Positions 5,123 to 25,472 of a stretch of 32,000 nt of DNA are shown here, piece after piece (positions within the stretch are counted from its first letter, which is position 1; the number at the start of each line of letters is the position of its first letter). The stretch covers positions 1 through 32,000 of the forward strand of contig CAYHAA010000004.1 in assembly GCA_964354495.1 (NCBI GenBank), given 5' to 3'. The notes beneath the pieces are model-generated. The model made no database searches and had not been told where the DNA came from. It worked only from the letters and a program-made list of their open reading frames with translations. This DNA comes from an uncultured archaeon. Lineage in GTDB: Archaea > Asgardarchaeota > Thorarchaeia > Thorarchaeales > Thorarchaeaceae. Both the position numbers and the translations under genes were made by a program.

Positions 5123-6676
5123 TTAAAGCGGGATGTTCCCATGCTTCTTTGGGGGTCGCGATTTCCTCTTGCTCGCCAGCATCTCAAGACCACTACATAT
5201 CGAGGGTCTGGTTTCATGTGGGAAGATGACCCTGTCAATGTAGCCAAGTCCTGCCGCAACATACGGGTTGGCGAACTTCTCGCGGTACTCCTTCACTAGC
5301 TCCGTGCGCTTCTTCTTTTTGTCCTTCGCTTCCTCGATCTCCTTGCGAAAGATGATGTTGATGGCGCCATCAGGCCCCATCACCGCAATCTCGGCTGACG
5401 GCCAGGCATAGACAAGGTCAGCATCGATATGTCTCGATGACATGACGTCGTAAGCACCCCCGTATCCCTTTCTTGTGATGATGGTGATCTTAGGGACGGT
5501 AGCCTCCGCAAATGCATAGAGAATCTTTGCGCCATGGCGAATGATACCGCCCCACTCTTGAGCTGTCCCCGGTAGATATCCAGGGACATCCATGAATGTG
5601 ATGACAGGGATGTTGAACGCGTCGCAGAATCGAACGAAGCGAGCACACTTGTCTGATGCATTGATGTCAATTGTGCCTGCTAGATGGGCGGGATTATTCC
5701 CAACAATTCCTACGGACCTGCCATCAAATCTGGCAAAACCCACCGTCATGTTCTTTGCCCAATGTTCGTGGACTTCAAAGAATTCTCCATTGTCAGCCAA
5801 CTTCTTAACGACATCGCGCATATCATACGGTTTGTTCGGATCATCCGGGACAATTCCGTCGATTGACTCATCAACGTCATTGGGTGCATGACCAGTATCG
5901 ACTCGAGGGGGTTCCTGAAGATTGTTCTGGGGGATGTAACTGAGAAGTGTCTTGATCTGCTCAAAACAGTGGTCCTCATCCTCGCTCGCAAATTGTGCGA
6001 CGCCACTGACGGAGTTGTGAGTCATTGCGCCGCCCAGCTCTTCAAAGGTGACCTCCTCTCCGGTCACTGTCTTGATGACCTCTGGACCCGTAATGAACAT
6101 GTGTGCTGTGCCCTTGACCATGAGCGTGAAGTCCGTGACTGCTGGGCTGTAGACAGCTCCACCCGCGCACGGCCCCATAATCGCCGAGATTTGAGGAATG
6201 ACCCCGCTTGCCCACGTATTGCGTTCGAACACAAAAGAATAATTTGCCAAACTCAAAATCGATTCTTGAATTCGGGCACCGCCGGAATCCAGTAGGCCAA
6301 TGACAGGAGCACCAGTTTGTATTGCAAGATCCATTATCTTGCAGATCTTTTCCCCATGCTTTTCTGAGAGCGAACCTCCAAAGACAGTGAAATCCTGACT
6401 AAAGATGAAAGCTTTTCTGCCAGCAATTGTGCCATAGCCGGAGATGACCCCATCGCCAAGAATGCGTTTTTTGTCCATGCCAAAATCTGGAACCCTACTG
6501 ATCACGAATTCATCAATCTCAACAAAGGATCCGGGGTCTAGAAGTTTGTCGATTCTCTCACGGGCGGTATATTTGCTCTGCTCGTGTTGCTTCTCAATTC
6601 GTTCTTTGCCGCCACCTAGTTTGGCTTGTTCACGCAATTTCCTGAGTTCCTCAAACTTATCATCACAACCAACCAT
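5123..6676 (-). CDS. pccB: Acyl-CoA (propionyl/methylmalonyl-CoA) carboxylase/decarboxylase carboxyltransferase subunit
   Basis: [50 protein letters not shown]-terminal KKHGNIPL; start moved to ATG 6676 (GGAG upstream). Confidence 0.93.
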
Positions 6677-6767
6677 TGACAAGCACACTCCAGTCTTTCA
6701 ATCAAATGTTTCAATCCATCATGGTTTTGAATGTTCTGCTATTTCAAATAGAGGTAGAGAGAAGTCT

Positions 6768-9700
6768 TCACGAGTCTGCATCATTGATTACCTTTTGAAT
6801 AGTACTAGATCTACGAGCTCTTCCAAAGTCTACCCACAGCAGCGGCCCGATTTGATTTACCTTAATTCCCTGTCTGTGATACTCCAGGATTCTCTTCTTT
6901 TCCTCCTTGCTGACCTTTGTGTGTTTCATGGATGCTATCATCATAATGAGTTCGCGTAGTCGAAAGAAACGATCAGCAGCATACTTAAACAAAGGTAATT
7001 CAGCTGCCATTCTCAATGATTCTTTCTTTGATATGACAATTCCGGTTCCTCCGTCCACAGAATCGATTCCAAGGAGAGATAGCAACGATTGGAAAAACTT
7101 CTTGTTGTGTTTTGTGCCTATACCTGCAGTCATATTGCGAACAGAGGCATATCCGTCCCCATCAGCAACGCCTTGCAGAATGGGCAGAATCATCTCATGA
7201 GGAATTTTGAGAACCCATTCTGCTCGAATGGATTGGTCTTCTTTTGCAGCGTCCATTCTCAAACCAAGTAGTGTGCTCCGTATCCACAGCAAGAATGGCG
7301 AAGCCGAGCTCAGCCAGTTCATCGTTTCGATGTCCTTTCCTGCTTTGTTCTTTCTTACGCGATTCTTGTTCCTCCAAGCCCTGAAACCTAGTATGCCAAG
7401 ACAGTAGCAGAAGGCCTCACCGAACGTTTCGCTCCAAGAATAGTTTGCACTTAATGAAATGCCAACAGTGGTGGAAATGCCATTCCGACGCACGAAGAAT
7501 CCATCCGAAATAATAGCTCCAAGCAGATACATGAAAGCAATGATTCTTGGGATTGCGCCAAAACGTTTTGTCCAGTCTTTCATTTTTCTTCCTTTCAGGG
7601 GTACAAGTTGATCTAGAACATACTTGATATCACTGATATCGCTGATAACTAGCGGAACTTGGATGAACCCATGTTGTTTTCCATTTTTTACTTTGAGCGC
7701 CACCCATCTATTGCCACTTTGGGGAGGAACTCTAGGAATAGATGAGGCGACTCCCACAAGTCTTGGAAAAATGTGTTCTAAGCGTCTTCTCTTTGCATTT
7801 GCCATGTTCAATCGCCCACGTTTGATGATATCTGTGTAGAGTCCCCCTTTCTCTAAGGCTTTAAGAAACTGAAAGAACTCCTTGGCGCGCACGTGGTCTT
7901 TCTTGTGGCTAGGGAGCAATTTCAGTGCGCCAAGTAAATAGAAAGTCCGCATCCGCTTCCTGTACTCCGTTAGACTGACAATCCCGTTGAGTTTCTGATG
8001 GATTGCCTTGAGTTCTCTCTTAGCCTCAGTGACCGACAATGCCCTCTCGAGCATATCGATTACCATAGGCAATGATATTCCTACAAGCCATTGATTCACA
8101 GTCTGTTGTGAAACGTCATGTCTTGCAGCAAAATCAACGATTTCCTTTCGTGTAACATGCTTTTGAGCCCCAAACTTGCGTCTTGCCAAGAAATACACTC
8201 GGACAACGTGAAGGAGCCGCTGATAATCGGACCGTTCCTTCAGCCATGGAAAATCACTATCAACGACTTTCTTGAACTCGGAATAGGAATCAATCACTTT
8301 GCTCCGCAATACTAGGGGACGGATCTTGACCCTGTACGTGGATCCCCTGTGCGACGTGTATCTCTCCGTCGGAGCCAACTTCCCTGTCTGCGCCAGCACA
8401 TGCCGGATGAGCCACGGAACCTCCCCAGCTGTGAACGCCCGCACGCGCCGCTTGGAGATGCCCGACCGCCGAGCGATGTCCTTCTGGGCCCCGCCGCGCT
8501 CCAGTTCGCCGAGGAAGGCGAAGAACTCTCTGACCCGCGCTTCCTTGCTCCGGTACTGGGCAATCCTCGTGTACGCACCATCGGGATAGAGAAGTTTCAA
8601 CCAGAGTTCGAGTTCAGACCACGTTCTGATGCCGCCTGCCCTCTTGACAATCTCGTTCAAGAGCCGGCGAGCCTCGCGCGCTGACATGCTCGACCCGACG
8701 ATCTTGAAGAGGTGGGGCACATGACCATACAGAACCCATTCGCGTGCAGTTGACTTCTTCAGGCCGAGCCGTGCCCCGATCGTATCGACCTCGAACTGAC
8801 GGACCGCGGTGCGCCCCCTGAGGGCATCCCTGAGCTCGAAGAACTTGCGCAGCTGCTCCAAGAGCGCAGGATAGTCGGAGCGCACAGAGACTCCGGGGTA
8901 GTAGCGCTCCAGCCACTTCTTGTAGCTCTCAAAGGAGCCAGCAGGTCGCTTTCCGCACATGGGTCGGTGAAGTCGGAGCGTGTACTCGCGCCCCCTGTGG
9001 TAGCCGGTCTTTCGCTTCTTCTTCACCCTCTGCTGTTGAGCAACCGGAGACCTCACTACCCCTGCAAGACCCCGCTCAAGCGACCGACGGGCAGCCTCAC
9101 CAACAACAGACGCCCATGCCCGCTCGACCTCAAGAGCCCGCAGCTCGCGGATGAGTCGAGGGACCTCTCCCTTCTTCTTGCTGCGGACGTACTGACGCGC
9201 ATCCTCCAAGTTCTGCCTGAAGTCGGGGCTCACCACTCTCGACCGCCATCGCCTTACGAGCGCCTCCAGTTCTTCCTCAGACTCGACCTCTCTCCGCACT
9301 GACTCCTTGAACCGCTCACGCTCCTCCTCGGTGAGCCTCGCAAACAACTCCCTGAGCCGCTCACGAGTGCGTTCTTCCTCCTCTCGCTCGCGGTCCTCCT
9401 CGGTCTCGGGGAAGTACGGGCGTGGTTCCAGAGAGTGGTCGATGTGCCGCTCCCCGGTCATGGCGTCGATGATGACCCGAGGCTCGTTGACCTCTTGCTC
9501 CTCAAGCACATCCAACTCCTCCAGCAGCTCCTCGACTCTCCTGATGATCTCCTCGGGAACCTCGACCGACTCCTCGCCAGCCTCCCCAGCGTCAGAGACC
9601 TCCCCGGACTCCTCGGGCCCGACCTCCATGCCGCTATCCGAGGTCTCCTCTACCTCGGCCGAGTCCTGCTCGACCGCGTCTTCGCTCTCCTCAGGAACTG

Positions 9701-10574
9701 ACTCCGTGGTCTCTGGAACAGGCTCTTCGATGGGCTCCGTTACCTCCTCGGAAGCGACTTCGGAAGCAGGCGAGAGGGTCTCCTCGACCTCAGATGGCAC
9801 GCTCGCAGTCTTCTGCTTGTGCTCACTCTCGGACTCCTCTGTGCAGTCCTCTAGACCAACATCCTCTTCCCTCGATGACTTCGCTCGACCCTCGGTGGCC
9901 TCTGAGGGAACCACGGTCTCTCCAGGCTCTTCGACCTCCGCATGTTCCGGGCGGGTGATGGAGTTCCTGACCTTCACCGACTCGTCGGATTCAACCACTT
10001 CAGATGTAGCCTCAGGGATCTGTGGAGCCTCTCGATGCTCCTCTTCTTCCACTTCCTCGGTTTCAGCCTCGACCTCGCTCTGCGCATGACCCTCAGATGG
10101 ACCACCGGTCTCGACCACATAGACTGTACCGTCACCGCCCTCGATATACGACGGAGTGGACTCTTCGGTCTCTGAGGTCTCTCCATCGCGGTCAGGCTCT
10201 GAGGACTCATCCTTGGTTTCCTTGAGAGAGGGACCGTCCAGCTGGCTCTCCATGTCATTGATGAAGTCCTCATGAAGCTCCTCTCGGGCATGATCAAGTG
10301 CATCCCCGAGCTCATCCTCGACCTCTCGCAGCTCCTCGGACGCCTCTCGCGCAATCTCCTGGGATCTGTCCTGCTGGGACTCGAACTCTTCAAGTTCCTC
10401 GAGGGATTCCTTCACTATCTTTTCGACGGACTCCTTGTGCTCCAGCTCCCGGAAGACCCCATCAAGGACTTCCCTGATCCGTTCAGACCGTTCCTCCTTC
10501 TCGAGGATTTCGTCGCGCTCCCTGTTCTCACGAGGTGTCCATCGCCTGCGATGTTCGGAGAACTCAGAAGGCAA
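6768..10574 (-). CDS. 1268-aa protein: acidic low-complexity N-terminus, tandem HTH-like repeats, two-motif LAGLIDADG domain, C-terminal HTH-like segment
   Basis: LAGLIDADG motif 1 YLLGAIISDG (~7500-7535) and motif 2 ILQGVADGDG (~7150-7185); 216-aa internal duplication (8939-8385 vs 8291-7745); TTG start 4 nt after the upstream stop. Confidence 0.85.
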   Translation of the reverse strand: MPSEFSEHRRRWTPRENRERDEILEKEERSERIREVLDGVFRELEHKESVEKIVKESLEELEEFESQQDRSQEIAREASEELREVEDELGDALDHAREELHEDFINDMESQLDGPSLKETKDESSEPDRDGETSETEESTPSYIEGGDGTVYVVETGGPSEGHAQSEVEAETEEVEEEEHREAPQIPEATSEVVESDESVKVRNSITRPEHAEVEEPGETVVPSEATEGRAKSSREEDVGLEDCTEESESEHKQKTASVPSEVEETLSPASEVASEEVTEPIEEPVPETTESVPEESEDAVEQDSAEVEETSDSGMEVGPEESGEVSDAGEAGEESVEVPEEIIRRVEELLEELDVLEEQEVNEPRVIIDAMTGERHIDHSLEPRPYFPETEEDREREEEERTRERLRELFARLTEEERERFKESVRREVESEEELEALVRRWRSRVVSPDFRQNLEDARQYVRSKKKGEVPRLIRELRALEVERAWASVVGEAARRSLERGLAGVVRSPVAQQQRVKKKRKTGYHRGREYTLRLHRPMCGKRPAGSFESYKKWLERYYPGVSVRSDYPALLEQLRKFFELRDALRGRTAVRQFEVDTIGARLGLKKSTAREWVLYGHVPHLFKIVGSSMSAREARRLLNEIVKRAGGIRTWSELELWLKLLYPDGAYTRIAQYRSKEARVREFFAFLGELERGGAQKDIARRSGISKRRVRAFTAGEVPWLIRHVLAQTGKLAPTERYTSHRGSTYRVKIRPLVLRSKVIDSYSEFKKVVDSDFPWLKERSDYQRLLHVVRVYFLARRKFGAQKHVTRKEIVDFAARHDVSQQTVNQWLVGISLPMVIDMLERALSVTEAKRELKAIHQKLNGIVSLTEYRKRMRTFYLLGALKLLPSHKKDHVRAKEFFQFLKALEKGGLYTDIIKRGRLNMANAKRRRLEHIFPRLVGVASSIPRVPPQSGNRWVALKVKNGKQHGFIQVPLVISDISDIKYVLDQLVPLKGRKMKDWTKRFGAIPRIIAFMYLLGAIISDGFFVRRNGISTTVGISLSANYSWSETFGEAFCYCLGILGFRAWRNKNRVRKNKAGKDIETMNWLSSASPFLLWIRSTLLGLRMDAAKEDQSIRAEWVLKIPHEMILPILQGVADGDGYASVRNMTAGIGTKHNKKFFQSLLSLLGIDSVDGGTGIVISKKESLRMAAELPLFKYAADRFFRLRELIMMIASMKHTKVSKEEKKRILEYHRQGIKVNQIGPLLWVDFGRARRSSTIQKVINDADS

Positions 10575-10578
10575 TCCC

Positions 10579-11367
10579 CTACCCCCGCCCTATCATCTTT
10601 GACTGGACTTCAATGAAGATCTTCCTCCAGACGACATCGTCTTCTGGAATTCCATGGGCGGTCCGGGCATAGTGAAGGAGAGAACCAGAGACCTCGGTAA
10701 GGGCGCAGTCCGGGCTCGCGATCTTTCTCGAGAAGATCTCGACCAGACGTAGGAGGGGACCAACATCGCCAGTCACGGCCTTCTCCATGCGCTCCAAGTA
10801 CTTCGCTGCGAACTCTTCTGTTCTGACGACACTATCGATTGTCCTAGAGAAACGGCTTTCGGGATTGAAGGGGATGGCGGCGGCAGCGAGGCTCCGTTGG
10901 GGGCGCTGCGTGAATTCTGCAATGCCTCGTTTCACAGCCTGTGAGATGAGAGCACCGGTCTTCACCTCGTCGACCCTGACTGATTTTGTTCTTCTGGCAC
11001 ACTCGATGTCCAATTGCCTGTGCAGGGTTTCGAGGTCAGACCTCAGGAAGCCCTTCTTGTCTGAGATCAGTCCTGCTAGGTCAGCGACAATCGAGCTCAC
11101 CACCTCCTTGGGCATGGGATTGCCATTGTGAGTATACGACCGGAGAAGACGGAGACAGCAGAGAGGGAGGGTTGTCTCGGTGTCTGTGGCAAGGCGAGCC
11201 ACCGCACGGATGATGAGAGCGACCAAGAGGGAGCTGCCGCTCCGAGTCACATCTGTGAGCACTTCTTGCATACCCCGAAAGGTATGATGCTCACCGATCA
11301 TGTGTGCTCGCACCATGCTCATGATATCCGGTTCTATTGACGGGACTGATCGGTCAGACATCGCCAT
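10579..11367 (-). CDS. Hypothetical alpha-helical protein, likely co-transcribed with the LAGLIDADG gene
   Basis: 262-codon ORF with protein-like composition ending 4 nt before the next start; no motif recognised. Confidence 0.7.
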   Translation of the reverse strand: MAMSDRSVPSIEPDIMSMVRAHMIGEHHTFRGMQEVLTDVTRSGSSLLVALIIRAVARLATDTETTLPLCCLRLLRSYTHNGNPMPKEVVSSIVADLAGLISDKKGFLRSDLETLHRQLDIECARRTKSVRVDEVKTGALISQAVKRGIAEFTQRPQRSLAAAAIPFNPESRFSRTIDSVVRTEEFAAKYLERMEKAVTGDVGPLLRLVEIFSRKIASPDCALTEVSGSLLHYARTAHGIPEDDVVWRKIFIEVQSKMIGRG

Positions 11368-11465
11368 GTCACAATGAACATTGCGTGCACATCAGACCTA
11401 ATCCTTTGTCAAAGCATTAGAAGTCCGTTATCATGCACGCACACGGAGGAAGAAGGCTTCTTCAT

Positions 11466-11504
11466 CTCTCGAGCGGCCAAACGAAGCCTATTCGCGCTCG
11501 AGAG
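11466..11504. repeat. 10-bp inverted repeat with 19-nt spacer
   Basis: CTCTCGAGCG ... CGCTCGAGAG, with an inner CGAA/TTCG stem. Confidence 0.6.
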
Positions 11505-11729
11505 CGATGTTCCAGTGTGCATGTTGACCTTCTGTTGTGTATCAGGGTACCATACTGCAAATACACCTGTACACTACTCTCATCTTACAAGAGGAGGCGC
11601 CCTCTTCGAAGGGGTGCGGTCTGAACACACCCGAATAGATGCCACTCTTAATGTACACGAAACCGAAACGATAGGACATTGGAAAGTTTAATATCAATGG
11701 ATGGCAATGCCGCATATTGAGGGTATCTC

Positions 11730-12424: not shown

Positions 12425-12586
12425 TCACGGGGAATAGATATTCAGAGCAAGAGTCTTGCAGAGCTGCTCTGCCCGTGTAAGATCACCCTCTCGCATGCAG
12501 TCCATGACCTCGTCAAGTTCATTTCTGTCGAGTGACTTCCTGAACAGGTCTACATACAATGCCCTTTCCTCTGCATCCAGTGTCAC
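12425..12586 (-). CDS. Small 53-aa helical protein, below the ORF-track cutoff
   Basis: GTG overlaps the TGA of the upstream gene (GTGA overlap); translates to MTLDAEERALYVDLFRKSLDRNELDEVMDCMREGDLTRAEQLCKTLALNIYSP. Confidence 0.65.
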   Translation of the reverse strand: MTLDAEERALYVDLFRKSLDRNELDEVMDCMREGDLTRAEQLCKTLALNIYSP

Positions 12587-13317
12587 TGCCCTCGCCTTCC
12601 CGTTGTGCTGGCATTTGATACGTTCCCCTCGCGGAAGATGTTCAACCAGACCTTACTGACCATGGCGCCACTGCACCTGCAAGTCAAAGCAATATCCTTC
12701 TGCGCGACCTGTACTACATTCTGCGAGGGCTGCATCTGGATTGCGCCATAGACGGCAGCCGCAGCAAGGACATCCGGATCGTAGGATGCTCGTTGTGCAT
12801 CTGTTAGTGACCCGACCATCGAGATGGCCTCGGCCTGCACACTCACAAACCACTCGGCAGTCCGCGACGTTCTTTCCTCAAGGGCATTTTGAAGAGAGTC
12901 AATGATCTCCTTGACAAGGTCTGCTGGAACCTCGCTCGACATCCGGATACACCCGACCCGATGACTTTGAATCTTCACACGTCGGTCAAAGAGTACTCGG
13001 TAAGCCTCGTTGGTCGCGCAAGGGGTGATGCCAAGGCTCTTACAGAGGAATGGAGTCGTAACCTGGACCCGAGTTCTGCTTTCGAACACCAAAAAGGACT
13101 GATAGATCGCAGCTGCAGCTACAATCTCCGGTCTGCGCCTTGACACTTGAACATTCTTGAGACATGCAATGCTCTGTTGAGCATGCTCCTCAATTTCAGA
13201 CAGCCATTGGTCAAGTTGTCGACGCACCTCTTCCTTCATGCTACCTAAGAGGACTGACATCGATTGCGAAACCATATCCCTCTCGACTGCCATTCTCATG
13301 CTGGACATTGATGCCAA
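12583..13317 (-). CDS. TFIIB/TFB-like two-repeat cyclin-fold protein lacking the N-terminal zinc ribbon
   Basis: RRPEIVAAAAIY and YDPDVLAAAAVY match the two TFB cyclin-repeat helices; terminal QKDIALTCRCSGAMVSKVW resembles the TFB C-terminal HTH; no CxxC ribbon; start uncertain. Confidence 0.7.
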   Translation of the reverse strand: MASMSSMRMAVERDMVSQSMSVLLGSMKEEVRRQLDQWLSEIEEHAQQSIACLKNVQVSRRRPEIVAAAAIYQSFLVFESRTRVQVTTPFLCKSLGITPCATNEAYRVLFDRRVKIQSHRVGCIRMSSEVPADLVKEIIDSLQNALEERTSRTAEWFVSVQAEAISMVGSLTDAQRASYDPDVLAAAAVYGAIQMQPSQNVVQVAQKDIALTCRCSGAMVSKVWLNIFREGNVSNASTTGRRGQ

Positions 13318-22333: not shown

Positions 22334-22594
22334 ATGCCTAGAAAGACCTACAGAGACGCACAGGGATATCTTCGGTTCATAGACTCAGGTAGACTAGTAC
22401 ATAGATGGGTGGCAAGTAAGAGACTTGGAAGATCTTTGGAACCCGGAGAAATCGTACATCATAATAACAAGATACGAACTGACAACAGAAGCACGAATCT
22501 CACCGTCTTCACTTCAAGTAAGGCTCACCATGCCCATCATATCAAGGAGATGTGGGCCGCTACTCGCAGAAAGAGAACACTGAAAGGTCGATGA
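22334..22594 (+). CDS. Small free-standing HNH endonuclease (HNH_3-like)
   Basis: VHRWVA...LGRSLEPGEIVHHNNKIRTDNRSTNL; GGAGG SD. Confidence 0.8.
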   Translation: MPRKTYRDAQGYLRFIDSGRLVHRWVASKRLGRSLEPGEIVHHNNKIRTDNRSTNLTVFTSSKAHHAHHIKEMWAATRRKRTLKGR

Positions 22595-22606
22595 ACGAGC
22601 GTGAGC

Positions 22607-22864
22607 TCAGCAGTCCTGGCAGCCTCTTGTGGTTCGTCGTAGCCTCACTTTTGTCGCTGGTAGTATCCGAGCTGGACCGTAGGATTGCTTTGTTGGAGCG
22701 TACTCACAGTCCAGTAAGGATGCGAGCCAGAGGTCGGGATAGGATTGCTTACCAACCCATGCAGGATCCGGGTTTCTTGGCCCCACTAATCGATCGTAGC
22801 CTAGGACAAGAAGGGTGAAACCTAAGGCACCAAGCACCATGTAAACGAGTAGCACGCCAAACAA
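22607..22864 (-). CDS. Small single-TM hypothetical protein
   Basis: N-terminal hydrophobic helix, repeated KQSY motif, terminal CQDC; start uncertain (22864 or 22840). Confidence 0.5.
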   Translation of the reverse strand: MFGVLLVYMVLGALGFTLLVLGYDRLVGPRNPDPAWVGKQSYPDLWLASLLDCEYAPTKQSYGPARILPATKVRLRRTTRGCQDC

Positions 22865-22905
22865 TAGTTAATATTGTTTATTAAGTTGAGGACATGGCCA
22901 AGCAT

Positions 22906-23769
22906 TCATTCATGCCGGGACAACTTCTCAAGGTATTGTATCTTTGAGAAAGAAGCACGATCGGGCCGTGCAAGGGCATCAGGAACACTCAATTCTCTGA
23001 GATCGAGTTTCATCCGTGAAGAGAACTGATCAATCCATTCCTCTCGAGCCTCACGAGCCAAGATGCTTGCAGCTGCAACAGCAATCTCGTCCTCAGCTCG
23101 TGGTCGTTGAATAAGATCGACCTTTTCGAGGTGAATGACCCGAGAGAGCCGCTGCTGTGTTTTCACTCTTGAGAACTCGTCTACTACGATTCGAATAGCC
23201 TCCGTCGAAGAGAGATTAGAATAGACGTCTGAGATTACTTTGGCGTGACCCCAAGCCAGAAGATCATTGAGATTCTTCCCTTCATTATGCAGCTCCTGAA
23301 GCCGTTTGTTGAAGGTTTCTGGTGATATGAGCAGAACACTTCTTCCCTCGCAGCCAGATTCAATCTCGACGGCAAGTTTGCTCAGCCGACGAAGTGGCAC
23401 CTCCTTGCTGTCCATGACTCCGAGGCTTTGAAGTTCTCGGGATTGGTTCTCTGTTGTTGCCACTGCCGCGACGACAAGAGGACCTAGCCATTCACCCTTG
23501 CCTGCCTCATCAGAACCGATGACGAACTTCTCTGTCGCCTCGCTCTCAGCAAGTCCTCGGACAGCTGTCTGTGCAATTGCTTCAGCGTGAGGGCCGCTAC
23601 AGACAATCTTCCCACTTGTGTATCCTACAATCGTCTCTCCATCACATCTAATCCTAAAGGCCTCGTACTCACTGTCAACTTTCAGAGAGCTTGCATGTTT
23701 GTTCGCCAGAATCAGTTGTTCGAGTCGTTTTAGGTCCTCAACCTTGACCTTGATGATTGCCTGTTTCAC
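22906..23769 (-). CDS. rnhC: Ribonuclease HIII-like protein (N-terminal TBP-like domain + RNase H2 catalytic domain)
   Basis: N-terminal YTSGKIV; GSDEAGKGEWLGPLVVAAV, MDSK, VVDEF, VAAASILAR. Confidence 0.8.
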   Translation of the reverse strand: MKQAIIKVKVEDLKRLEQLILANKHASSLKVDSEYEAFRIRCDGETIVGYTSGKIVCSGPHAEAIAQTAVRGLAESEATEKFVIGSDEAGKGEWLGPLVVAAVATTENQSRELQSLGVMDSKEVPLRRLSKLAVEIESGCEGRSVLLISPETFNKRLQELHNEGKNLNDLLAWGHAKVISDVYSNLSSTEAIRIVVDEFSRVKTQQRLSRVIHLEKVDLIQRPRAEDEIAVAAASILAREAREEWIDQFSSRMKLDLRELSVPDALARPDRASFSKIQYLEKLSRHE

Positions 23770-23818
23770 TTAGCCTCGCCCCATGCGTGGTAGACTGATG
23801 CTTCACTCTCTTTTAAGT

Positions 23819-24649
23819 CTAAAACCTTCTGACTTCAAGATTGAATTGTCGACGATTAGGGTCGAATCGAAGAAGAGAGTAGTACCCATCTTTCACAGCA
23901 GGGAGAACTGCGCAAGGAACTGATCCGACTGTGAACCTGTGGTCCCTATGGTAGTGGCCTGAGAGCACGAGCGAGGGATGATACTCATGAATGAATCTGG
24001 TTATTGCCTTGCTGCCAGTCGATACACCCTCAGGCAAATTGGGATTCATTCCTTCTTTATAGGGCGGAACGTGGGTTAGAAGCACCCTAAAAGGCAGTCC
24101 TCTAATCGCCTCATATCCGCGGAGTAGGATATCGAATATCTCGCTCTCTGTGTGTTCGAATGGGCTTCGATATTTCTCCATCTGTTGTAGTTTCTCGGGA
24201 GGCCAATTTTCAACCTCAAAGAAACCATCTCGGATGAACACACCGAAAGCGTTGAGCGTTTCAATAGATTTGGCATGAAGGCGGATAGCTGGACGCCGAT
24301 TCTCCTTGAGATACTGTCTGAGGGCATGGACGACCTCCACCGCATCAGTCACCCCGCCTACTCCGAAGAAGCCAATCTCTTCAATCTGCTTGGATGTGCC
24401 ATGTACATTAACGCCAATATCGGACATGAATTGAACAACCTCTGGTAGTGCACCATTGCCAGGCACTGCCACCATCCATTCTGCGGTATCATAGATGCAC
24501 CTGAAATTCTCAAGAGACCTCTGAGCAATCTTTCCATATTTCATCAGGTCACCCAGAAATATTACGCCATTGCATTCGCGAGCCAATCCTAGCATCTCAT
24601 CCAGATGAGCCCAGTTGTCATGAATGTCGGCGAGCACAAGGAACTCCAT
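23819..24649 (-). CDS. Calcineurin-like metallophosphoesterase
   Basis: ADIH, LGDL, PGN, THVPP, SGHYH motifs. Confidence 0.88.
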   Translation of the reverse strand: MEFLVLADIHDNWAHLDEMLGLARECNGVIFLGDLMKYGKIAQRSLENFRCIYDTAEWMVAVPGNGALPEVVQFMSDIGVNVHGTSKQIEEIGFFGVGGVTDAVEVVHALRQYLKENRRPAIRLHAKSIETLNAFGVFIRDGFFEVENWPPEKLQQMEKYRSPFEHTESEIFDILLRGYEAIRGLPFRVLLTHVPPYKEGMNPNLPEGVSTGSKAITRFIHEYHPSLVLSGHYHRDHRFTVGSVPCAVLPAVKDGYYSLLRFDPNRRQFNLEVRRF

Positions 24650-24683
24650 GGATCTTCATTCACATCCTCTGAATTCTTGCTTC

Positions 24684-25472
24684 TCAGTCTTCGCGAAGAT
24701 GAGTCACATCGCCCATGCTAAAGGCCACATCGCCGTTTTCGGTTTCAACAAGCAGAGAGCCATCATCAAGTAGCTCCTTTGCAGTACCAACATACATTCT
24801 GACTCCATTGTCAATGCGGACTCGTGCGCCCAGCGTGGAGTTCATTCTTCTCCACTCAGCTAATACGGCATCAAAGGATTCCTCAGAGCGAGTTATCTGA
24901 ATCCAGTGGTCAATGAAAGTGAGAACCTCACACAGCATCTCTTCAGGGGAGGTAATATTCCCAAGATGTTCAATAAGAGAAGTCGCAGAGTGTCTGATTG
25001 CTTCAGGAAGAACAGAGATGTCAGTGTTTAGGTTTATGCCAATACCAAGGACCACTAGATGGTCATCATGGCTGCGAGAAACCAGCTCGCTCAATATGCC
25101 GGCTACTTTGCGCTGTGATATCAAGACATCATTGGGCCATTTCAGGCGAGCTCCGTCTACTCCCATCTTTTGGAGAGCGTTGACGACTGCGCATGCACAG
25201 AGAAATCCATGTAGAGGTGCAGATTCTATCTTCAAGATGGGTCTGATGACTATTGAGAAATACAGACCTCCCATTGGAGAGGACCAGGTTCTATTGTACC
25301 GTCCTTTACCATGGGTTTGAATCTCTGAAATGATCAATAGCTCGTCGCTTAGACCTGAGTTGATACGACGCTTTGCCTCATCATTTGTAGAGTCTATAGA
25401 CGAAACGACCGCAACCTGTAGGTTGAGAGTGAGGTGCTTCAGGCACCTACGTATCGCTTCAGGCTCGACCAC
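24684..25472 (-). CDS. birA: Biotin--protein ligase (no N-terminal HTH)
   Basis: DSTN, QTHGKGRYNRTWSSP, KWPND, KVAGIL, GIGINL; GGAGTGA SD before GTG. Confidence 0.93.
   Translation of the reverse strand: MVEPEAIRRCLKHLTLNLQVAVVSSIDSTNDEAKRRINSGLSDELLIISEIQTHGKGRYNRTWSSPMGGLYFSIVIRPILKIESAPLHGFLCACAVVNALQKMGVDGARLKWPNDVLISQRKVAGILSELVSRSHDDHLVVLGIGINLNTDISVLPEAIRHSATSLIEHLGNITSPEEMLCEVLTFIDHWIQITRSEESFDAVLAEWRRMNSTLGARVRIDNGVRMYVGTAKELLDDGSLLVETENGDVAFSMGDVTHLRED

Follow-up and report, generated by a model that had tools for sequence, protein, structure and literature searches.

On the minus strand of the 32,000-nt window analyzed here, two adjacent genes encode a large protein of 1268 residues (P0001, 6768–10574, with a TTG start) and, ahead of it, a protein of 262 residues (P0002, 10579–11367), as taken from the list of open reading frames (ORFs) and their translations. 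The window is the whole stretch of that length, with which contig C4 of a Thorarchaeota genome (3.3 Mb in 51 contigs, with an estimated completeness of 97.7%) begins; L-, G-, and P-numbers designate loci, genomes, and proteins. With moderate confidence, we read the two genes as a modular, probably active LAGLIDADG nuclease next to the tail of an ATPase left by a deletion, both derived from an accessory genome-conflict pair with exchangeable cassettes. The ORF of P0002 stops 4 nt ahead of the start of the large gene. This start is probably correct, since the TTG codon and the first residues (PxEFSE) recur in relatives, including L007 and L024.

The LAGLIDADG core and the modules of the large protein

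Residues ~978–1200 of the large protein (6975–7643, minus strand) form a two-motif LAGLIDADG core, delimited with the AlphaFold model, Foldseek, fold comparison, and the invariant aspartates. The motifs are IISDG at residue 1021 and ADGDG at residue 1137, and the codons of the catalytic positions are 7503–7505 (D1024) and 7155–7157 (D1140). In the family alignment, with a mean column identity of 27%, D1024 and D1138-G-D1140 are invariant in all 51 sequences. The AlphaFold model of residues 540–1268, built with this alignment, has a mean predicted local distance difference test score (pLDDT) of 92.6, with values above 90 in the core region, and contains two alpha-beta-beta-alpha-beta-beta-alpha halves packed via both LAGLIDADG helices. 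The fold of the core matches PI-SceI (Z 16.4), PI-PfuI (Z 16.0), WhiA (Z 15.4), I-SceI (Z 14.4), and I-DmoI (Z 13.5). With the structures of LAGLIDADG endonucleases, the root-mean-square deviation is 2.6–3.5 over 159–195 residues at 15%–21% identity, and the Foldseek TM-score (target-normalized) of the core is ~0.6. Against Pfam LAGLIDADG_3, the window protein scores 17 bits, under the cut-off of 22.5 bits, the paralog at L019 scores 35.7 bits, and 42 of the 51 aligned relatives are matched (best E 7e-12). On these sequence and model grounds, the large protein is predicted to be a single-chain, two-motif LAGLIDADG endonuclease that is probably catalytically active. The assignment of the fold is not new, since the NCBI pipeline labels some homologs "LAGLIDADG family homing endonuclease."

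The core shares with PI-SceI, PI-PfuI, I-DmoI, and I-SceI (LAGLIDADG_3) the pseudo-dimeric two-motif fold (Z 13–16) and both motif-terminal aspartates. Unlike these enzymes, the window protein, known here by sequence and model, has no intein or intron host (a Pfam scan of the large protein gave no match to a Hint or intein domain), possesses an operon link to a HerA-type ATPase, and carries ~1000 extra residues, namely four helix-turn-helix (HTH) sub-repeats, an acidic N-terminal module, and a helical tail. WhiA, a bacterial regulator made of a LAGLIDADG domain and a C-terminal HTH, has lost the catalytic acidic residues. In both WhiA and the window protein, a free-standing LAGLIDADG scaffold is fused to helical DNA-binding parts, but the window family keeps the acidic residues, matches neither the WhiA N-terminal domain nor the WhiA HTH profiles in Pfam or NCBIfam at E up to 1, and is accessory, multi-copy, and patchy, whereas WhiA is a core protein.

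Two units of HTH sub-repeats precede the core. Unit 1 (residues 546–761; 8292–8939, minus strand) comprises sub-repeats 1a and 1b, and unit 2 (residues 762 to ~977; 7644–8291, minus strand) comprises sub-repeats 2a and 2b with a small beta element; both were delimited by self-alignment, hhalign, and the helices of the AlphaFold model, with Pfam HTH matches in addition for unit 1. A gap-free alignment of the two units has 28% identity over 161 residues; this internal repeat was missed by a default self-BLAST of the whole protein and revealed by a targeted comparison of the units. With sub-alignments of the 51-sequence family alignment, the equivalent halves of the units match in hhalign at probabilities of 99.9% and 99.7%, and the four sub-repeats of ~100 residues are mutually homologous (96%–98%). 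The Pfam families HTH_23, HTH_28, and HTH_3 match the window protein weakly, at residues 691–718, and match strongly in up to 16 of the 51 relatives (best E 6e-13). A further match of the family profile is to the HTH at the N terminus of the IS21-type transposase of IS5376, and the model contains tri-helical segments in the units. A feature search in the ESM Atlas with unit 2 gave nothing usable.

The C-terminal tail (residues 1201–1268; 6768–6974, minus strand) is helical in the model (AlphaFold helices H661–728) and may be a fifth HTH. In the preliminary description, made from the sequence alone, it was given as a final HTH-like segment; its helical nature stands, but the hhalign comparison gave no profile that identifies an HTH there. 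That description had otherwise anticipated much of the architecture: an unusually large free-standing LAGLIDADG protein, without a Hint domain and unlike WhiA in keeping the acidic residue at the end of both motifs, and two 216-residue units each built of two HTH-like sub-repeats. These points are borne out by the results above, and the structure prediction that it proposed as a check gave the LAGLIDADG fold together with the HTH-like tri-helical segments. The array of HTH modules that it described is supported by Pfam, profiles, and model, and would be well placed to extend DNA recognition.

The N-terminal module has three parts. The leader (residues 1–118; 10221–10574, minus strand), defined from alignment A4 of 11 relatives, contains the motifs MPxExSExxER and RxELHxEFVNDMxxQLEGxS, kept across all 11. 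The spacer (residues 119–400; 9375–10220, minus strand), defined by its composition, is acidic and rich in Glu, Ser, Thr, and Pro, with a net charge of −23 to −31 per 100 residues; it is poorly conserved beyond close relatives and, judged by composition, probably disordered. The charged segment (residues 401–545; 8940–9374, minus strand) is the last part of the module in common with protein P0180 of L024, with identities of 68% to P0180 and 77% to P0011. In relatives without the ATPase, the protein begins within this segment. The net charge is about −100 over residues 1–400, and residues 500–1100 are net basic. Residues ~1–420 had been described as low complexity, which is apt for the acidic composition but not for the conserved motifs of residues 1–118.

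The 262-residue protein and the ATPase–nuclease pairs

P0002 is a homolog of the C-terminal ~260 residues of a membrane-anchored HerA/FtsK-type ATPase of ~1030–1180 residues. It aligns to residues 903–1151 of P0171 (E 1e-20) and is 68% identical to the C terminus of the 1175-residue P0178. The full ATPase begins, in most of the copies scanned, with ~130 residues that contain ~4 hydrophobic segments (one in the C3b paralog). It further has a P-loop domain with a match to Pfam DUF87/HerA and, as a profile, to solved HerA chains at E 9e-13, an extra middle domain of ~350 residues, and a helical C-terminal domain of ~260 residues. P0002 has neither a Walker A motif nor a transmembrane or hydrophobic segment, and the window holds no other remnants of the ATPase. 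The AlphaFold model of P0002 is all-helical (pLDDT 81); a feature search with it in the ESM Atlas gave nothing usable.

In a three-way DNA alignment, positions 11353–11588 of the window are homologous to the DNA just upstream of the full-length ATPase gene of L024, start codon included; beyond the start codon, the window sequence resumes at about codon 914 of that gene. The deletion junction, where the ATPase start M-S-D is joined to about residue 914, is at 11350–11358, and the retained upstream (promoter/5′) region of the ancestral gene, with nucleotide homology to L024 5765–6000, is at 11368–11588 (both on the minus strand). Judged from these alignments, the 262-residue ORF is an in-frame deletion derivative relative to L024, which is the closest of the full-length loci found. 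What was lost is the membrane anchor together with the middle domain and the P-loop motor; what persists is the ancestral upstream DNA, the start codon, and the tight junction to the nuclease gene. On a contig from another sample, P0175 is a stand-alone protein of 265 residues, 71% identical to P0002 and with the same N-terminal join. Its ORF is complete and overlaps by 11 nt a downstream gene that runs off the contig and may be a nuclease gene. Since the join is the same at 71% identity, the protein sequences point to one old deletion, retained and kept open, from which both short forms would stem. The preliminary description had seen in the 262-residue protein an independent partner or inhibitor of no known kind, a view that gives way to that of an ATPase C-terminal domain; the real system therefore consists of ATPase and nuclease, the copy in the window being motorless.

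In relatives, the gene ahead of the large gene encodes a full ATPase of about 1140–1180 residues and overlaps the large gene by 11 nt. Overlaps of 4 or 11 nt between ATPase and nuclease ORFs are found at L001–L003, L006, L007, L019, L022, L024, L034, and L035, and the ATPase adjoins the nuclease also in G093 and G131. The genome of the window contains four full-length ATPase paralogs, each followed by a large partner gene. At locus C3, the partner is a LAGLIDADG relative of 1144 residues (4-nt overlap) and, at C16, an adjacent LAGLIDADG relative that runs off the contig. At C10 (L022 6644–8500), the partner (618 residues, 4-nt overlap) combines ten NUMOD3 motifs with an HNH nuclease domain at its C terminus. 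At C3b (L023 1541–4279), it is an adjacent protein of 912 residues and of a second type ("type B"). The C-terminal 700 residues of P0180, the partner at L024, are likewise a C3b-type cassette (E 2e-56); P0180 matches the window protein over residues 1–545 and not over the remainder. The type-B cassette common to P0173 and P0180 (L024 11200–13297), with 26% identity over 635 residues, is silent in Pfam; LAGLIDADG-like motifs (…GSDG…, …IPEEG…) are seen in it by eye only.

Similar short motifs, of the form M-[PT]-x-E-x-[SG]-[ED]...R, open the ATPase-coupled partners, and acidic helices come next. A constant N-terminal part combined with variable C-terminal nuclease cassettes, as in polymorphic toxins, is thus present, the motif common to the LAGLIDADG and HNH partners being short and weak in pairwise comparison. 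A HerA-type P-loop ATPase next to the nuclease is found in relatives and at the other loci of the same genome, and not in the window.

The ATPase is absent from L004, a close relative, where the nuclease starts at about residue 430, without the acidic N terminus; ATPase and acidic N-terminal module thus disappeared jointly. In the window and on the contig of P0175, the C-terminal domain of the ATPase is kept directly upstream of the next gene. From this co-loss (L004), the co-retention (window and layout of P0175), and gene order, we infer that the ATPase tail functions with the N-terminal module of the nuclease. A complex prediction for P0002 and leader residues 1–130, both given as alignments, scored 0.01, which counts neither way.

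The relatives resemble the archaeal pair HerA-NurA and the bacterial defense complexes HerA-Sir2 and HerA-DUF4297 in that a HerA-clade ATPase is translationally coupled to a nuclease. They differ in the transmembrane segments and the middle and C-terminal domains of the ATPase, in the homing type of the nuclease and, in the window, in the deletion of the motor. The partner nucleases are LAGLIDADG, or HNH at C10, and none of the NurA, Sir2, or DUF4297 type was found. Modular homing endonucleases of the I-TevI type (NUMOD, HTH) likewise combine a nuclease domain with serial small DNA-binding modules; a paralogous ATPase locus of the same genome is paired with ten NUMOD3 motifs and HNH, and short relatives of the window protein stand between housekeeping genes, like free-standing endonuclease genes in phages. 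The window protein, unlike them, has another catalytic fold, is much larger, is chromosomal in Asgard archaea, and comes with a leader and an ATPase partner.

Distribution, proposed function, and alternatives

Homologs of the large protein form 24 close clusters and, in an exhaustive search, 280 clusters at 50% identity; the named ones come from Thorarchaeota assemblies. Among 151 genomes of the phylum, almost all matches are in two families, the family of the window (14 of 26 genomes) and another (14 of 19). A single genome has as many as nine matches; many matches are fragmentary or stop-bearing, and many lie at contig ends. In the second family, the usual form has 530–600 residues and consists of one unit and the nuclease core. 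In the genus that holds most of the short copies, no ATPase was found (0 of 15 genomes). Short copies are flanked by housekeeping genes (L025 4180–6633 and 7935–10478; L027 6098–7705); one lies in the opposite orientation between MoxR ATPase and DUF58 genes, and another between the genes for ribosomal protein S3 and Trm112. By analogy, their placement is reminiscent of free-standing homing endonuclease genes. A survey of homologs and neighbors across Asgard genomes had been proposed in the preliminary description, together with a linkage of the 262-residue gene in other genomes. The survey found multiple copies and a linked upstream gene, which is there a full ATPase; the linkage is patchy and not obligatory, as L004, the short forms, and the genus without ATPase illustrate.

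In L007 and L006, the site occupied in the window contains the complete pair, flanked by an HNH_3 gene and the carboxyltransferase gene; in L004, it contains a nuclease without ATPase. In G146, a C-terminal remnant of the large gene (76 residues; L030 9425–9652) stands before the carboxyltransferase gene. In G156, the site is empty, the HNH_3 and carboxyltransferase genes being 180 bp apart (L032 3668–4102). Since the same site is full, partial, decayed, or empty, the pair is an accessory cassette with fast turnover. The empty site of L032 was compared with filled sites for boundary repeats, and the intergenic DNA is too diverged. Matches in public sequencing runs have small shares (0.06–0.07) and come from wetland and soil metagenomes, with no RNA run among the matches listed.

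In the mechanism that we propose, the four helical sub-repeats, each with an HTH at its end, would form a long basic DNA-reading arm, which lengthens or specifies the target site, and the nuclease is predicted to cut long specific DNA sites read partly by this arm. The C-terminal domain of the ATPase would dock or handle the N-terminal module of the nuclease, and such docking would explain why this domain alone of the ATPase survives beside the nuclease. The nuclease cassette would be exchangeable behind the common N-terminal leader. The system may serve genome conflict by cutting foreign or allelic DNA rarely and at specific sites close to the membrane motor; in the motorless copy, the enzyme may act as a free-standing homing-type endonuclease accompanied by the docking domain. 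A broader proposal, which we make only tentatively, is that the Thorarchaeota and the second Asgard family possess an undescribed conflict system, in which the C-terminal domain of a HerA-type membrane motor holds leader-tagged, swappable, sequence-programmable homing-type nucleases that intercept DNA at the membrane or are exported. The deletion in the window would then indicate that docking domain and nuclease are self-sufficient.

If active, the protein would be a naturally modular meganuclease, with a LAGLIDADG core, four or five HTH readers, and recombination breakpoints between modules, and it would bear on the evolution and re-targeting of long-target nucleases. The link to a HerA-type ATPase and the exchangeable cassettes point to an uncharacterized accessory system in Asgard archaea, the closest known relatives of eukaryotes; to our knowledge, little has been learned of their genome-conflict machinery. 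The conserved in-frame deletion that leaves the ATPase tail can be seen as a natural experiment, marking the tail as the part that would work with the nuclease. Full-text literature searches found no published description of the family, the architecture, the HerA-type partner, or the swappable cassettes. The window adds a motorless derivative, a fourfold sub-repeat structure with a confident model, and a mosaic breakpoint.

Several observations weigh against this interpretation. Since short forms exist that have neither the N-terminal module nor the ATPase, the nuclease can do without the latter. What the LAGLIDADG and HNH partners have in common in their leaders is a motif of ~12 residues and an acidic composition, and a pairwise BLASTP of these leaders is not significant (E 0.35). 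That the C-terminal domain of the ATPase has a docking role is argued from co-retention and gene order. Fold searches with the P0002 model returned nothing informative (best Z 6.1 among representatives of the Protein Data Bank, TM-scores below 0.4 in the ESM Atlas), which is no proof of a new fold. PADLOC gave no match for the two proteins of the window and weak HerA/mad8 matches for the full ATPases, and no target site, immunity gene, or defense-island signature was identified for the pair. Some LAGLIDADG proteins with retained acidic residues work as maturases or binders. Decay of the locus, weighed below, also counts on this side.

In another reading, which we hold to be unlikely, the membrane ATPase is a secretion motor, similar to EssC/YueA or to type IV coupling proteins, that exports leader-tagged nucleases as polymorphic toxins against competitors; the window would then contain an orphan toxin and a leftover docking domain. 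The constant leader with swappable LAGLIDADG or HNH and NUMOD3 cassettes would fit, as would the N-terminal transmembrane segments of the ATPase. Like the type IV coupling protein DotL and type VII EssC/YueA, with their substrate-docking tails, and like polymorphic toxin loci, the pairs have a P-loop motor that is anchored in the membrane, bears a C-terminal extension, and is found near leader-bearing swappable cassettes. In bacteria, the export of polymorphic toxins is driven by FtsK/HerA-type ATPases, according to a survey (PMC3482391). However, no immunity-like gene lies downstream; the next gene is the conserved carboxyltransferase gene in the window, L004, L007, and L034. No secretion channel genes were noticed nearby, no dedicated search for channel genes or signal peptides having been made, and the similarity to DotL is at the level of the Walker A motif (E 0.03). 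The LAGLIDADG core and the long HTH arrays suggest rare, sequence-specific cutters and not indiscriminate toxins, LAGLIDADG is absent from the main text of the same survey (PMC3482391), and homologs without leader or ATPase are common.

It is quite unlikely that the protein is a domesticated DNA binder of the WhiA type, acting in transcription or chromosome organization without cutting and using its aspartates for metal or DNA binding only. WhiA is among the best fold matches (Z 15.4), a helical tail follows the LAGLIDADG core in both, and the position beside the carboxyltransferase gene is stable and syntenic in several genomes. Yet the acidic residues lost in WhiA are invariant here, Pfam gives no WhiA match, and the family, patchy, multi-copy, fragmented, and often pseudogenized, is unlike a core regulator. 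In addition, the nuclease cassette is replaced by an HNH nuclease at a paralogous locus.

The deletion in the ATPase could also be the first step in the loss of a decaying locus, with both ORFs open by chance. The series of full pair, shortened nuclease without ATPase, 76-residue remnant, and empty site in relatives is what decay would produce, and many members of the family are stop-bearing or fragments. We nevertheless consider this very unlikely for the copy in the window: the deletion is in frame, with start codon and upstream region kept, the same short form is intact at 71% identity on another contig (P0175), and the frame of 1268 codons is unbroken, with all family-invariant residues kept.

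The large gene is itself composite. Its GC content changes from ~44% to 60%–66% at about nt 8300, which is the boundary between units 1 and 2, and stays high through the 262-residue ORF. Residues 1–761 are closest to P0011 (61%–80% identity), and residues 762–1268 are closest to P0004 and P0007 (63%–71%), P0011 having 52%–55% identity there. A similar within-gene gradient of GC at third codon positions (GC3) is found in the independent assemblies L006 and L007, which argues for recombination between modules rather than mis-assembly; from sequence comparison, we read the large gene as a recombinant mosaic with a breakpoint at about nt 8300. In three independent assemblies, GC3 within the large gene peaks at about codons 450–760 and is lowest in the nuclease core (window 8292–11367), a pattern for which recombination between modules is the one evident cause. 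Contigs from public runs are short and 90%–95% alike, and none bridged ~8300 or ~11350. An assembly chimera, joining different populations at these two points of a metagenome-assembled genome, would account for the sharp GC change inside the gene, the different closest relatives of the two protein halves, and the lack of a bridging public contig, but it is extremely improbable, given a continuous reading frame, the same GC3 gradient in L006 and L007, the recurrence of the deletion junction at the protein level in P0175 from another sample, and the retention of the ATPase upstream region in the correct order.

Gene neighborhood

The genes that flank the pair are ordinary archaeal genes. The carboxyltransferase gene (5123–6688) is directly downstream of the large gene and, upstream of the pair, a gene at 12583–13317 has a weak cyclin-fold (TFB-like) match. 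Rfam and tRNA scans of the window gave no matches. Between 11374 and 12230, upstream of the 262-residue gene, there are two small ORFs on the plus strand (105 and 166 residues). The 166-residue ORF has no Pfam match; the 105-residue ORF, possibly no real gene, overlaps the upstream region kept from the ancestral ATPase gene. At 22334–25445 of the window, 12–15 kb from the pair, are the genes for HNH_3, RNase HII, and biotin ligase; in relatives these flank the ATPase–nuclease pair, so the neighborhood is rearranged in this genome.

Partial extra copies of the 3′ part of the carboxyltransferase gene are present at 3–548 of the window and on contig C10 (102388–103431 and 109405–110013), with 85%–91% amino acid identity. 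C10 ends with one of them and C4 begins with another; since the residue ranges that they cover overlap, the two contigs are probably neighbors. The carboxyltransferase site looks like a hot spot of repeated integration. In L004, the same carboxyltransferase footprint occurs, and the cargo there is an MNT/HepT toxin–antitoxin pair.

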